Positions 10,657 to 63,584 of a stretch of 64,000 nucleotides of DNA are shown piece after piece. The translations under genes and the position numbers were made by a program. This DNA is from Ignavibacteriales bacterium (GTDB lineage Bacteria > Bacteroidota > Ignavibacteria > UBA10030), in contig JACPLA010000100.1 in the NCBI GenBank assembly GCA_016186715.1, positions 157-64,156 of the forward strand. Reading direction: 5' to 3'. The notes under the pieces were generated by a model. That model had not been told where the DNA came from and made no database searches. It saw only the letters and a program-made list of their open reading frames with translations. Numbering within the stretch: the first letter of the stretch is position 1; each line of letters opens with the position of its first letter.

Positions 10657-11706
10657 TCAGGCAATCGTTACGTCGGTCGAAAGATACACGTCCTGAATGG
10701 CATTCAGAATCTGAATTCCCTCTTTCAGAGGTTTCTGGAACGCTTTCCTGCCTGAAATCAGTCCCATTCCCCCGGCCCGTTTGTTAATCACCGCCGTCCT
10801 GACCGCCTCGGCAATGTCATTGGTCCCGGAAGGACCCCCGGAGTTGATCAGCCCGGACCTCCCCATGTAACCGTTGGCAACCTGATACCGTGTGAGGTCA
10901 ATGGGATGCTCGGACGTCAGCTGCTCATAGACTTTCTTGTGGGTCTTTCCGAAGTTCAGCGCGGTGTAGCCGCCGTTGTTTTCGGGAAGTTTTTGTTTGA
11001 CGATGTCCGCTTCGATCGTGACGCCCAAATGGTTCGCCTGTCCGGTCAGATCGGCCGCAACGTGATAGTCCTTCTCCTTCGTTTTGAAAGCCGGGTTTCT
11101 CGTGTAGCACCAAAGGATCGTCGCCATTCCCATCTCATGGGATTGCTGGAACGCCTGGCTGATTTCCCAGATTTGCCGTCGCGATTCCGGCGAGCCGAAA
11201 TAGATGGTTGCGCCGACTGCCGCCGCCCCCATGTCGAAGGCCTGCTTGACGCTGCCGAACAGTGATTGATCATGCGTGTTGGGATACGAAAGAAACTCGT
11301 TGTGATTGATTTTAAGAATGAACGGGATCTTGTGGGCGTATTTCCGAGCCACGGAGCCAAGAACGCCGAGGGTGGATGCAACGGCGTTGCAGCCACCGTC
11401 GATCGCGAGCCTGACGATGTTTTCCGAATCGAAATACATCGGATTCGGAGCAAAGGAAGCGCCGGCGGAATGTTCGATGCCCTGATCCACCGGGAGGATG
11501 GAAAGATATCCCGTTCCTGACAACCGGCCGTAATTGAAAAGAGACTGAAGGCTCCGAACCGCCGTGGGAGGCCGGTCGGAAAGTGTGAATATGCGGTCAA
11601 CCCAGTCCGGACCCGGGAGATGCAGCGACTCTTTCGGAAACGTTTTGCACTTGTGTTCAAGCATCGACTTTGCTTCAGCGCCAAGAAGTTCGGGAATATT
11701 AATCAT
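10657..11706 (-). CDS. fbaB: Class I fructose-bisphosphate aldolase (FbaB/DhnA type)
   Basis: DhnA-type aldolase signatures [12 protein letters not shown] and KINHNE. Start at the ATG at 11704-11706 ([13 protein letters not shown]); the track ORF has a 34-aa spurious extension. Confidence 0.85.
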
Positions 11707-11932
11707 GGAAGTAGGTCCTTTCTGAAGGGAGACAGAAACAGCAAGACAATATATCAATCCTTTTCCTCTGGTGCAAGAAACCAACGATCCCGGACGAGGT
11801 CGTGTCACCTCTCAAGCAGCAACGATACAGAAGGTTCATGTCGTTGCGGGGAGTCGCGACTCTGTCGGAAGAACGAAGCCATTCGGACTCCCCCGGTCTT
11901 GCCACGAGCAAAAGGAGGAGCACGTCCGACCA

Positions 11933-12015
11933 CCTGTCATTGCAAGGAGTCCGCCTAGTGGGAGAGTGAGCGACGAAGCAATCCAGGCTCCCCTGTCATT
12001 GCGAGGAGCGAAGCC
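11933..12015. repeat. REP-like imperfect direct/palindromic repeats (CCTGTCATTGCRAGGAG ... GCGACGAAGCAATCC ... GGCAACGAA) in a 390-bp intergenic region
   Basis: Two copies of CCTGTCATTGC(A/G)AGGAG are visible at 11933-11949 and 11992-12008. Both are flanked by complementary GCAATCC/CATTGC half-sites. A further stem-loop follows at 12040-12080. Confidence 0.4.
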
Positions 12016-12096
12016 CTCGGGGCAACGAATAATCTATCATTCCGTCCTCGTTGAACTTCGGTTGCTTCTCGGACGAATTGTGTCTACTTTTTCTTA

Positions 12097-13266
12097 ATGA
12101 AAAATCAGATCACATTAAAGAAACGGGAAGAACAAAGGCTTCTCTCGGGCCACCAATGGGTTTTCAGTAATGAGATCCAGTCAATACAGGGAAACCCCGA
12201 GGCCGGTGACATCATTGACCTGCTCCGGCACGACGGTAAGTTTCTTGGGCGCGGACTTTATAATCCGCACTCCTTGATCGCCGTCCGACTTCTCACACGG
12301 AACAAGGAAGAGATTTCGTTCGCATTCTTTGAACGACGAATCTCACAGGCCCTCAAGCTTCGACAGATCGTCTTTCCGCAAGCGGAAACCTTTCGGCTCG
12401 TCCACGGCGAAGGGGATTTTCTTCCCGGATTGATCATCGACAAGTACAACGAGTTTCTCTCGATTCAGACGCTCTCGTTTGGGATGGATCGCCGGCTGAC
12501 TCTGATTTGCGACGTGCTCGAGTCGATGTTACACCCGAAAGCGATCGTCGAGCGGAACGAATCGCACCTCCGGGCACTCGAGCATCTCGACTCGAGGAAA
12601 GGAGTTCTTCGGGGAACCTCTGATCACACGATTGTGACTGAAAACGGCATCAAATTCAACCTGGACCTGCTGGGCGGACAGAAAACCGGCCTGTTTCTGG
12701 ATCAACGTGAAAACCGGAAAGCGATTCGCCGTTATGTCTCGGGGAGATCTGTCCTCGACTGTTTTTGCAACGAAGGGGGGTTTAGTCTGAACGCCGCTGC
12801 CGGGGGCGCAACAAGGGTCGAGGCTTATGACGTTTCCGAGGCCGCGATAAGCAGAGCAAGGGTGAACGCGACCATCAACCAGGCGGCCTGCATCTCATTC
12901 GGGGTTTCTGATGCATTCGACCTTCTTCAGAAGAAAGTGGAGAATGGTGAAACCTACGACGTCGTTGTCCTCGATCCTCCGTCATTTACCCGAAGCCGGA
13001 AGAATGTGAACAGCGCTTTGAAAGTATACAAAGAGATTAACGGCAATGCCTTGAAGCTGCTGACAAACGGCGGGTTTCTTGCCACGGCTTCCTGTTCCCA
13101 CCATATTTCGGAAGAATCGTTTCTTGGCACGGTTGAATCCGCGGCCCATCATGCCGGGAGAACGGTTCGGCTTGTGCACGCGGCCGGAGCAGGACCCGAC
13201 CATCCGACTCTCCCCTCCATGCCGGAAACCAGGTATTTAAAATTCGCTGTGTTCGCCGTTGATTGA
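12097..13266 (+). CDS. rlmI: 23S rRNA (cytosine1962-C5)-methyltransferase RlmI (PUA + class I SAM MTase)
   Basis: 389 aa. N-terminal PUA-like domain and a C-terminal SAM-methyltransferase fold (VLDCFCNEGGFSL, DPPSF). The architecture is typical of RlmI. Confidence 0.85.
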   Translation: MKNQITLKKREEQRLLSGHQWVFSNEIQSIQGNPEAGDIIDLLRHDGKFLGRGLYNPHSLIAVRLLTRNKEEISFAFFERRISQALKLRQIVFPQAETFRLVHGEGDFLPGLIIDKYNEFLSIQTLSFGMDRRLTLICDVLESMLHPKAIVERNESHLRALEHLDSRKGVLRGTSDHTIVTENGIKFNLDLLGGQKTGLFLDQRENRKAIRRYVSGRSVLDCFCNEGGFSLNAAAGGATRVEAYDVSEAAISRARVNATINQAACISFGVSDAFDLLQKKVENGETYDVVVLDPPSFTRSRKNVNSALKVYKEINGNALKLLTNGGFLATASCSHHISEESFLGTVESAAHHAGRTVRLVHAAGAGPDHPTLPSMPETRYLKFAVFAVD

Positions 13267-51186: not shown

Positions 51187-52386
51187 CTAAACCGCAGTCA
51201 CCGATGTGCGTGTTAACTTCCCACCCGGACTTCGTACCACGGCATTCGCCTCTTCTCCGATTAGCCGCTCGAGCTTCTGAACTTTTTCCTCCACCTCCGG
51301 ACGTGACCGGCCGAGAACCGTCATGTGGCCCATCTTGCGTTTTGGCTCCCTCCTCGATTTCCCGTACAGGTGTATTTTTGCGCCTTCGATTTTCTGGACT
51401 TCAGCCAGATCGAGACGCTGGAGATGTTTGCCAAGGAGGTTCACCATTGCACAGGGACTGAGAAGCCTCGGTTGATGAATCGGAAGTCCGCAAACGCATC
51501 GGACGAGCGCTTCAAATTGTGAAACACTCGAAGCGTCAAGCGAGAAATGTCCCGAATTGTGCGGACGGGGCGCAAGCTCATTCACTAGCAACCGACCGTC
51601 GTGTGTCACAAACATTTCCACACACAGGACGCCCACGATGCGAAAATGCTCAATCACCGCTCTGCCCAGGTCCGTCGCCTTTTGTGCCAGATCGGCGGGG
51701 AGTTCTGCGGGAACGCGTGTCACGTGGAGGATGTTCTCGCGATGTTCATTTTCCAGGACCGGGAATGTCGTCACCGTCCCCTCGCGCCCGCGGACGGCAA
51801 TCACCGAGATTTCAAGCTGGAGAGGAAGGAATTGCTCAACCACGCGCTCCGCAAATTGTTCCCCCTCCTTCTTCAAGAATGATTCAAGTTCCTCCCCTGT
51901 ACGCAAGACGGATTGTCCTTTGCCGTCGTACCCTGTCGTTGAAGTTTTCACCACAACCGGGTACCCAATCTCCCGAACAGCCGTTTTCAATCCGTCCGCC
52001 GTAGAAGCAGACAAGAACCTCACAACCGGAAACCCAGCTTTCAGTAAAGCTTCTTTTTCCACTCCCCGGTGTTGGGCTATGCGAAGGATGGGGCTTCCGG
52101 GAAAAACCGGTTTGTTCGATTCAATGGTTTCAACGGTCTGCGCGTCGATATTCTCGAACTCGTACGTGACGACGTCGGAAGACCGGCCAAGTTGCTCCGC
52201 GGCTTGTGTGTCCTCGAAAGGAGCCGTGATGGTTCTTTCGGCAACCTTTGAAGCCGGGCATTCCGGATCGGAATCCCACACGATACTCCGGTATCCCATC
52301 CGACGGGCTTCGCGGAGCGTCATCATGCCGAGTTGTCCGCCGCCGATCATCCCGATCGTCGCCGGCGGGAGAAGGGTGTTGGTCAT
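51187..52386 (-). CDS. purK: N5-carboxyaminoimidazole ribonucleotide synthase
   Basis: ATP-grasp motifs ([27 protein letters not shown]). I trimmed the track's 197-aa spurious extension to the ATG at 52384-52386, which overlaps the purE stop (ATGA). Confidence 0.9.
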
Positions 52387-62951: not shown

Positions 62952-63584
62952 TTATTCGAATCTCTGTGTCTTCCATTTTCTCGCCTTCCTGCTGTCCGTT
63001 TCCCAATTCAGGGGATTGTCGATAATGTATTGGCGGATTCTGTCTAGTTCACCCTCGTCGCGGATTATCCGATCATGGAACCGTTCCTGCCATTGGAAAT
63101 CGGCAAATCCTTCATCGTGGATTCGGCTGGTGCATTTGGATTTGAACTGCCCTAGGATAGAACCCAGGGAATTTGGTTTTAATTTGGGTTTTGGTTTTCC
63201 CGCAGGTGTCATACCCGTAGAGACGACCGGATCGGTCGTCTCTACGATGGGAACAACAAATGATTTTTCCCAATCCACAAATGGTATTTGACCTGACGAT
63301 GCCGCGGATTTGGATTCGTGGATCATGATTATTCCGTGCATATGATTCGGCATCACGCGCCATTCATCCAACGTAACCGTCGGCCGAATCGTCGGCGTCT
63401 TCAGCCATTCCTCTGCAACAATTTCCCCGATCTGTGACAGTTTCATTTGTCCGTTTGCAACATCACCAAACCACCAAATCATCCCTTCCGTGTCAATCGT
63501 TACAAAGTACGATCCGGGCGATGAATAGTCGAATCCTTTCAACCGCGCGGATTCAATCCGGTACTTCCCCTGAAATAGCGCCAT
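62952..63584 (-). CDS. REP-associated tyrosine transposase (RAYT; IS200/IS605 TnpA-like Y1 HUH transposase)
   Basis: HUH motif MPNHMHGII. A catalytic Tyr-containing C-terminal helix (RFHDRIIRDEGELDRIRQYIIDNP). Start at the ATG at 63582-63584. Confidence 0.75.
   Translation of the reverse strand: MALFQGKYRIESARLKGFDYSSPGSYFVTIDTEGMIWWFGDVANGQMKLSQIGEIVAEEWLKTPTIRPTVTLDEWRVMPNHMHGIIMIHESKSAASSGQIPFVDWEKSFVVPIVETTDPVVSTGMTPAGKPKPKLKPNSLGSILGQFKSKCTSRIHDEGFADFQWQERFHDRIIRDEGELDRIRQYIIDNPLNWETDSRKARKWKTQRFE

Follow-up and report, generated by a model that had tools for sequence, protein, structure and literature searches.

The question raised by this locus is what fills the spacer of 390 bp (positions 11707–12096) that separates a fbaB-like aldolase gene from a divergently transcribed rlmI-like methyltransferase gene on contig JACPLA010000100.1 of an Ignavibacteriales bacterium; all coordinates refer to the window, the whole stretch of 64,000 nucleotides of that contig that was analysed. 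An initial annotation, made from the letters alone, had described the spacer as filled with palindromic repeats resembling repetitive extragenic palindromes (REP) or miniature inverted-repeat transposable elements (MITE), and had pointed to a REP-associated tyrosine transposase (RAYT) gene elsewhere in the window. Our analysis leads to a different assignment: with a probability that we put at roughly 85%, the insert in the spacer is a short head-to-tail array of GTCAT-headed hairpin repeats of the class represented by the Ssn-related motifs (SRM) and the NTS repeats of Neisseria, in which one copy (B) is good, one (C) is eroded and one or two more (A and perhaps A′) are relics. The wider repeat class, which is dispersed across bacteria, is physically coupled to genes of the Ssn family of GIY-YIG nucleases and has a covarying hairpin.

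The 17-mer CCTGTCATTGCRAGGAG, which the initial annotation had noticed in two near-identical copies, does occur at 11933 and 11992, and a third, relic copy with three mismatches lies at 11837, all on the plus strand (the exact letters are CCTGTCATTGCAAGGAG at 11933–11949, CCTGTCATTGCGAGGAG at 11992–12008 and CATGTCGTTGCGGGGAG at 11837–11853). These three matches at three or fewer mismatches compare with 0.29 expected, none of 100 shuffles reached three, and the 64-kb window contains no further copies of the 17-mer. A covariance model (R1) was built from 78 copies of the family described below and applied, with filters off, to the entire window. It picks out copy B, a well-preserved hairpin repeat at 11935–11983 on the plus strand (match 11929–11989, 40.3 bits, window-wide E of 2.8e-8), which consists of a head TGTCAT, an outer stem P1 formed by ATTGC (11939–11943) and GCAAT (11978–11982), an enlarged, irregular and poorly paired centre, and a tail AATC(CAGG); the complementary half-sites reported earlier are thus borne out in this copy, which is also the sole exact match in the window to GTCATTGCRA…GAAGCAATC. 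Copy C (11994–12034, plus strand) is eroded: R1 matches 11990–12040 with 14.8 bits (E of 0.11 window-wide and 7e-4 within the region), and the head and 5′ arm are intact (TGTCATTGCGAGGAGCGAAGC), while the 3′ arm has been mutated to TAATC so that P1 can no longer close. Copy A (11835–11892, plus strand, cATGTCgTTGCGgGGAG … ACGAAGCcATtC) is a badly eroded relic that scores only 2.9 bits with R1, which is not significant (E of 0.83) even inside the 401-nt region, and it is credible only because it is the same-orientation neighbour of copies B and C. Tentatively, a very degenerate fourth unit, A′, may lie at 11893–11932 on the plus strand, as suggested by an internal similarity of 40 nt (73%, family D2) between 11873–11912 and 11973–12012; R1 picks up nothing there. 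The copies in the window are spaced by 96 and 59 nt, and R1 finds no other credible match in the 64 kb. Weak matches of 8–10 bits (E above 1) at 2859–2915, 51928–51976 and other sites lie inside long open reading frames (ORFs) and were taken as chance.

It is hardly conceivable that the repeats reflect chance similarity, or that the ORF of 108 amino acids at 11771–12097 is really protein coding. This ORF does span the repeats, but the shuffles and the E value of copy B speak against chance, and the ORF has no Pfam match and covers a stretch that is absent from the relatives examined below, so that it is not a gene, as had been proposed. The repeat class is, we presume, the source of peptides such as SLRGAKRRSNL in spurious ORFs. 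Two other elements proposed for the spacer did not hold up. The sequence GCGACGAAGCAATCC, offered as a second member of the repeat family, has a single exact occurrence in the window, at 11970, and its three-mismatch matches elsewhere in the window are at chance level (six found against 3.3 expected). The downstream stem-loop (12044–12076) is not distinctive as a DNA fold (z −0.13), and it overlaps the conserved block on the rlmI side (12057–12096), which contains its 3′ arm. A degenerate reverse-strand copy at about 12053–12090 that would pair with copy C was also considered and rejected, as R1 is silent there and the stretch is conserved in all relatives. A CRISPR array was likewise rejected given the spacings of 96 and 59 nt, the divergence of the copies and the dispersed and inverted occurrence of the same ‘repeat’ in other genomes; Tandem Repeats Finder reported nothing in the region, and cas genes were not searched for.

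The class to which copy B belongs was characterized by scanning one genome per bacterial species with the pattern TGTCATTGCRAGGAG-N(0-30)-GACGAAGCAATC. At least 120 stretches in more than 20 phyla were found, where by our own arithmetic about 0.004 chance matches would be expected. Among the matches listed, the hosts are Chloroflexota, Bacteroidota, Ignavibacteriota, alpha-, beta- and gamma-Proteobacteria, Desulfobacterota, many Patescibacteria, Verrucomicrobiota, Planctomycetota, Acidobacteriota, Nitrospirota, Gemmatimonadota, Cyanobacteria, Campylobacterota, Bacillota and others, and they include genomes of isolates (Mucilaginibacter, Chryseobacterium and Bradyrhizobium). The canonical repeat reads TGTCATTGC-GA-(variable hairpin)-GAA-GCAATC, its sequence including TGTCATTGCGAGGAGCGAAGCGACGAAGCAATC, and the unit derived from 134 instances is TGTC-ATTGC-GA-G-GA-G-(variable stem-loop)-C-GA-C-GAA-GCAAT-C; in locus L024 the unit is shorter, TGTCATTGCGAG-(stem-loop)-CGAAGCAATC, and the family consensus may be written TGTC-ATTGC-GA-(stem-loop variable in length and sequence)-GAA-GCAAT-C. 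The TGTCAT head is present in all 134 canonical instances as well as in copies B and C, and the 27 conserved nucleotides of the repeat are identical in more than 20 phyla. Between GGAG and CGAC lies a segment of 3–40 nt that varies in sequence and keeps its self-complementarity, the extremes being a G-C/C-G-closed GNA triloop and stems exceeding 10 bp. When 78 distinct copies are aligned, the first variable pair is CG in 39, UA in 12, GC in 11, UG in four and AU in one; the covariation score is 0.112 as against 0.037 in shuffles (0 of 500 reach the score) and is above that of every slid control, and 92.5% of cells are paired, compared with 20–57% when the partner is slid.

Copies occur as singletons, convergent inverted pairs and tandem arrays, and in both orientations across genomes. 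One array, in a Bacteroidetes metagenome-assembled genome (MAG; L072, 155–600), has a period of 53 nt and about eight units, and another, in Calothrix (L230, 1294–1811), has a period of about 104 nt and about five units and lies directly downstream of an ssn gene; both look CRISPR-like at first sight, yet their spacers are themselves repeated. Many matches lie within 100–300 nt of the ends of MAG contigs (for example L010, L011, L025, L027, L040, L051 and L057), which is consistent with the repeat breaking short-read assemblies. Searches of the literature with strings of the repeat sequence returned unrelated primers only.

A covarying stem with conserved GA-rich internal loops is typical of RNA motifs, and all copies in the window share the orientation of rlmI, so that a structured RNA transcribed from the spacer (a 5′ leader, a riboswitch-like element or a small RNA) has to be considered. 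We judge this very unlikely. Rfam 15 gave no match in the window at the gathering threshold and none in the region at E up to 10, and eight loci that carry canonical copies gave none when E was allowed up to 1. The RNA folding suggested earlier for the region yielded nothing, as the whole spacer folds no better than shuffles on either strand (z −0.4 and −0.5). Moreover, the array lies upstream of the conserved rlmI promoter-like block and is absent from relatives with the same genes, and the occurrence of copies in both orientations and as inverted pairs around ssn genes fits a DNA element; the SsnA enzyme of Neisseria is also reported not to touch RNA (PMC11893778).

The evidence that links the repeat to a particular protein comes from gene neighbourhoods. 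When 3,130 ORFs around motif sites were clustered, the clusters comprised generic families (ABC transporters, kinases) plus one small GIY-YIG cluster, whose protein of about 95 amino acids reads YxYIMTN..NTVLYTGVT…EKQIKGGSR.KK. Intact partner ORFs are 95–102 amino acids long and have PF01541 (GIY-YIG) as their only Pfam match. Intact genes of the matching subfamily are adjoined by the repeat in nine of nine independent cases (loci L020, L120, L064, L109, L201, L224/226, L227-229, L230 and L232), mostly as inverted copies on both sides, in hosts labelled Bacillota, Bacteroidota, Campylobacterota, Cyanobacteria, Chloroflexota and Aerophobetes (at least six phyla). At L020 the ATG comes 10 nt after the end of a plus copy, and 8 nt separate the stop codon from the start of a minus copy; L120, L064 and L109 are arranged in the same way, with the gene between inverted copies. 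At L227 the plus copy is 14 nt upstream of the gene and the minus copy 28 nt downstream. The gene of L120 lies at 583–888 in Chryseobacterium gilvum and that of L227 at 1001–1288 in an Aerophobetes MAG. The resulting units, in which terminal inverted repeats (TIR) enclose the gene (TIR-gene-TIR), measure about 360 bp at L020 and L227, and the partner proteins are 60–71% identical across four phyla. The reciprocal test gave the same answer, in that four members picked by protein search (including those of Dehalococcoidia, Aerophobetes and Calothrix) all had strong R1 matches within 150 nt. At a further locus (L130, 4994–5158) all that remains of an ssn-type GIY-YIG gene between two intact inverted TGTCATTGC repeats is its final 31 codons; the locus is a MITE-like derivative of a TIR-ssn-TIR unit that has undergone internal deletion. 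The ssn-like subfamily is very large (at least 7,999 of 8,000 candidates scored at E of 1e-10 or better), and among the matches listed are many distinct paralogues from Nostocales (Nostoc, Calothrix, Anabaena), which suggests a multi-copy expansion in heterocystous cyanobacteria.

These findings bear directly on the partner named in the initial annotation. According to that proposal the repeats are REP/REPIN elements mobilized by the RAYT-like Y1 transposase encoded at 62952–63584, and several features are in its favour: a RAYT-like gene is indeed present in the window, many of its homologues having been named RayT by JGI, the repeats share with REPs the form of a hairpin with an oriented head, and the phyla that have the RAYT family overlap with those that have the motif. 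The gene, on the minus strand, reaches 51.6 bits on the NCBIfam model REP_Tyr_transpos, for which the cut-off is 80 bits, and is a distant RAYT relative. The expectation that copies would flank it was not borne out, however, as its flanks in the window contain no motif copy, and of 80 metagenomic loci with a member of its family (447 kb in all) only three contain the motif, which lies kilobases from the gene. Conversely, tblastn of the RAYT protein against 838 kb around 120 motif sites gave no match. The head of the repeat is TGTCAT and not of the GTAG type, and the RAYT family carries a palindrome of its own, GTAGAGAC…GTCTCTAC; of the 80 loci, 29 have this palindrome in the gene itself and 17 have it no more than 200 nt away, at a density of 0.69 per kb near the gene compared with 0.03 per kb elsewhere (more than 20-fold). 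RAYT as the partner of the repeat was therefore rejected in three ways (reverse tblastn, the 80 family loci and the different gene-proximal palindrome), and the proposal is largely refuted and scarcely credible. Of the REP/MITE-like label, the part that stands is a dispersed, oriented hairpin family; the partner was wrong, the real one being the GIY-YIG (Ssn-type) gene. The window RAYT gene itself contains a perfect 14-bp inverted repeat, CGTAGAGACGACCG-gat-CGGTCGTCTCTACG, within its coding sequence (63216–63246), where it encodes VETTDPVVST; most homologues (loci L121-L200) read VETPRRGVST at that place, sometimes duplicated. The linker that joins the HxH motif to the helix with the catalytic Tyr harbours one palindrome copy. 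The GTAG-headed palindrome appears to be the RAYT family's own REP.

The spacer repeats are assigned to the Ssn system by comparison with published work on Neisseria and with homologues of the partner proteins. In Neisseria the NTS (CGTCATTCCCGCGMAVGCGGGAATCYRG) is reported to be bound as single-stranded DNA (ssDNA) by SsnA, a single-domain GIY-YIG nuclease of 94 amino acids, which cuts ssDNA upstream of the repeat, the opposite strand, double-stranded DNA and RNA not being substrates (Chenal et al., Nat Commun 2025, PMC11893778). The same report describes strand-specific binding and cleavage of ssDNA for the enzymes of Neisseria and Wolbachia, and ssnA homologues across phyla that are flanked by SRMs in a layout like that of an insertion sequence (IS), NTS-ssnA-NTS (PMC11893778). 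We found 17 homologues of the partner proteins in viral contigs, with 38–57% identity, nine of which lie between hairpins matching the published SRM pattern; among these nine, L205 has the exact Neisseria NTS consensus, CGTCATTCCCGCGAAAGCGGGAATCCAG. The closest viral-contig homologue (L201) carries a repeat of the TGTCATTGCGAGG type and the remaining viral-contig loci carry other GTCAT-headed hairpins, so that the type of repeat tracks protein similarity. When the hairpins of loci L201-L217 are ordered by the identity of the protein to the query, they read GTCATTGCGAGG at 57%, GTCATTCCCGCG (NTS), GTCATCCCAGCG and GTCATCCCGGAA at 45–49%, and GTCATCCCGCAC at 42%, the GTCAT head and an A(A/C)CC tail being kept throughout; judged from sequence, this pattern suggests co-evolving pairs of enzyme and site. 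The head (HGTCWY) and tail (AATCYN) are common to our repeat family and the NTS. As homologues of its partner are flanked by NTS/SRM hairpins, the repeat is a sequence variant of the SRMs.

Several observations weigh against this assignment. The published SRM pattern, HGTCWYN(0-2)YYVSBRHN(0-5)WNVSBRGN(0-2)RNCYNB, matches neither the window (copies included) nor the canonical variants, while an NTS control does match; the pattern is a heuristic derived from 29 genomes and not a functional definition, and the repeat sequence does not appear in the main text of the paper (PMC11893778). By tblastn and hmmsearch there is no ssn/GIY-YIG gene in the 64-kb window, and with only one repeat cluster in that stretch the multi-copy status of the repeat in the source genome is unproven. 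P1 and the purine-rich loops were fixed by the search pattern, so that their invariance is not independent evidence. By nearest-neighbour calculation the DNA folds of copies B and C have z of about 0 and that of the canonical 35-mer amounts to only −1.6 kcal/mol (z +1.4); among the folds of single units as DNA, only that of the NTS control was informative. Since the predicted stability is weak, the case for the hairpin rests on covariation and not on stability.

How the array came to lie in this spacer is indicated by the relatives. In genomes with RlmI proteins 69–80% identical to that of the window the same gene order is found (HAD hydrolase, aldolase, then RlmI on the opposite strand), but the orthologous spacers measure 143–274 bp as against 390 bp. 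When the spacers are aligned, both flanking blocks are kept in all five relatives and the middle is variable; the middle of the window spacer (about 270 nt, 11786–12056, with the array on the plus strand) has no counterpart in any of the five, and R1 finds no copies anywhere in the 6-kb loci of the relatives. Because the array is missing from five orthologous spacers of which both flanking blocks are conserved, these alignments identify it as an insertion in one lineage at the aldolase–RlmI spacer. In one relative (L223, 2330–2440) this variable middle contains another palindrome as an insert (…GGTTCCAAGTTCCAAGTTCGAGGTTTCCGAACTTTGAACGTTGAACCTCGAACTTTGAACC…), and the middle of the spacer seems to be a landing zone for small repeats.

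The genes on either side are as described in the initial annotation, Pfam and NCBIfam matches agreeing that the region separates fbaB from rlmI. The gene at 10657–11706, on the minus strand and reading away from the spacer, encodes a class I fructose-bisphosphate aldolase (fbaB-like; Pfam DeoC 212 bits, NCBIfam NF006707 651 bits with a cut-off of 327), and that at 12097–13266, on the plus strand, an RlmI-like 23S rRNA m5C (cytosine-C5) methyltransferase (Pfam PUA_3 and Methyltrans_SAM) that has 100% identity to a protein of an Ignavibacteriales MAG (P0121). The left conserved block (11707–11785, minus strand, …AATATATCAAnCCTTTTCC…GTGCAAG), kept in five of five orthologous spacers, is the probable fbaB promoter and 5′ leader and can be read as TTGC … TATATTGT on the minus strand, after the −33/−7 consensus of Bacteroidota; the right conserved block (12057–12096, plus strand, TTGCTTCTC…CTGTCTACTTTTT), kept in all relatives, is the probable rlmI promoter, and both, the left one over 11716–11785, resemble promoters of the Bacteroidota type (TTG … TAnnTTTG). 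The −7-like element on the rlmI side stops about 6 nt before the ATG, and this gap would imply a leaderless or near-leaderless rlmI mRNA. A scan for promoters of the sigma-70 type and for terminators found no sites; Bacteroidota-type promoters, which the organism probably uses, lie outside the scope of that scan. On these readings the array would lie between two promoters and is probably untranscribed.

A further explanation accepts the class of the repeats but takes the copies to be signals selected by the host, such as marks for ssDNA restriction that keep recombination or transformation in check around fbaB and rlmI, in the way put forward for NTS clusters in Neisseria, rather than decaying footprints. 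In N. meningitidis NTS and SsnA are reported to lower transformation by NTS-bearing DNA about fivefold, and the NTS repeats cluster around particular genes (PMC11893778). Copy B is moreover well preserved. On the other hand, a single cluster in 64 kb provides no NTS-gene-NTS arrangement, erosion has affected two of the three or four units, none of the relatives examined has the array and the window contains no ssn gene. We therefore regard host selection as unlikely; to us the array looks like a decaying footprint in a neutral zone between two divergent promoters.

By analogy with the Neisseria system, the repeat strand in the right orientation would fold into a hairpin when single-stranded, the hairpin would be bound together with its non-palindromic 5′ head by a GIY-YIG nuclease (Ssn) of about 95 amino acids, and the ssDNA would be cut a few nucleotides upstream of the repeat. 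In the window the plus strand alone would then be a substrate. Copy B could still be bound if the genome encodes a matching Ssn, whereas copies C, in which the closing stem is lost, and A, in which most of the motif is lost, would be inactive relics. The plus-strand GC skew is negative across the window (1–64000, −0.002 to −0.075); if it reflects replication, the plus-strand copies would sit on the strand that is less often single-stranded, but the signal is too weak to use. The TIR-ssn-TIR architecture and the internally deleted derivative suggest that copies may have spread by a single-strand route analogous to those of REP/RAYT or IS200/IS605.

It is possible, though we consider it doubtful, that the TGTCATTGCGAG…CGAAGCAATC repeat and its GIY-YIG gene constitute an autonomous, horizontally spreading ssDNA transposon with gene-less, MITE-like derivatives, of which the array in the window would be a footprint and not a signal selected by the host. 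What suggests this is the combination of 27 identical nucleotides, protein identities of 60–71%, units of about 360 bp, the deletion at L130 and the presence or absence of the array at an orthologous site. We know of no demonstration of transposition by Ssn. The analogy with insertion sequences was raised, but not tested, by Chenal et al. (PMC11893778). With the compact TIR-ssn-TIR units and the deletion derivative the transposon hypothesis is open to direct test, and if it were true the element would be the first insertion sequence in bacteria driven by a GIY-YIG nuclease.

For annotation, the spacer holds no gene, no RNA and no RAYT-type REPs but a small, decaying array of Ssn-type hairpins between two probable promoters. 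The locus itself is a small, eroding array, and greater interest attaches to the broader class with its TIR-ssn-TIR units, a by-product of the analysis. The Ssn system includes a very common repeat class, TGTCATTGCGAG-hairpin-CGAAGCAATC, that escapes the published SRM pattern, and censuses based on the pattern undercount Ssn, notably in Chloroflexota, Bacteroidota, Cyanobacteria and Patescibacteria; the class is also a ready set of enzyme/site pairs with a distal stem of variable length for ssDNA-cutting tools.

Comparison with known systems places the feature as follows. With IS200/IS605 elements and PATEs the class shares subterminal hairpins, which in those elements are recognized as ssDNA, a small nuclease gene between them and gene-less derivatives (L130 here), but there is no HUH transposase and the ends are true inverted copies of one motif, whereas IS200/IS605 elements have distinct left and right ends. 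The class is also like REP/BIME/REPIN elements with their RAYT (TnpA-REP) transposases: the hairpins are short, extragenic and led by a non-palindromic head, they cluster into mosaic arrays, one small nuclease gene has its own repeats on its flanks, and the action is presumed to be on single-stranded DNA. The partner fold is GIY-YIG here and HUH/Y1 there, and the head TGTCAT here and GTAG there. The dRS3 repeats and NIMEs of Neisseria form intergenic head-to-tail arrays of 50- to 150-bp units bounded by a hairpin repeat, and the spacings of 96 and 59 nt in the window and the periods of 53 nt (L072) and about 104 nt (L230) look similar, although sequence and phylum are different. About half of the dRS3 copies are reported to be NTS (PMC11893778). 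The likeness to SRM/NTS repeats themselves extends to a GTCAT head that orients the repeat at its 5′ end, a hairpin after it and a tail of the AATC type, a length of 20–50 nt, an intergenic position, occurrence as singletons, inverted pairs and arrays, inverted copies flanking a single-domain GIY-YIG gene of about 95 amino acids (in other genomes, not in the window) and partner proteins 38–57% identical to proteins flanked by pattern-matching SRMs. The differences are that the stem here is ATTGC/GCAAT followed by GA/GAA with tandem G·A and a distal stem of variable length, whereas the NTS stem is continuous (ATTCCCGC/GCGGGAAT), and that in the window the ssn gene is absent and the copies are eroded. 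The feature is of the Ssn/SRM kind described recently, though its sequence class goes unmatched by the published pattern.

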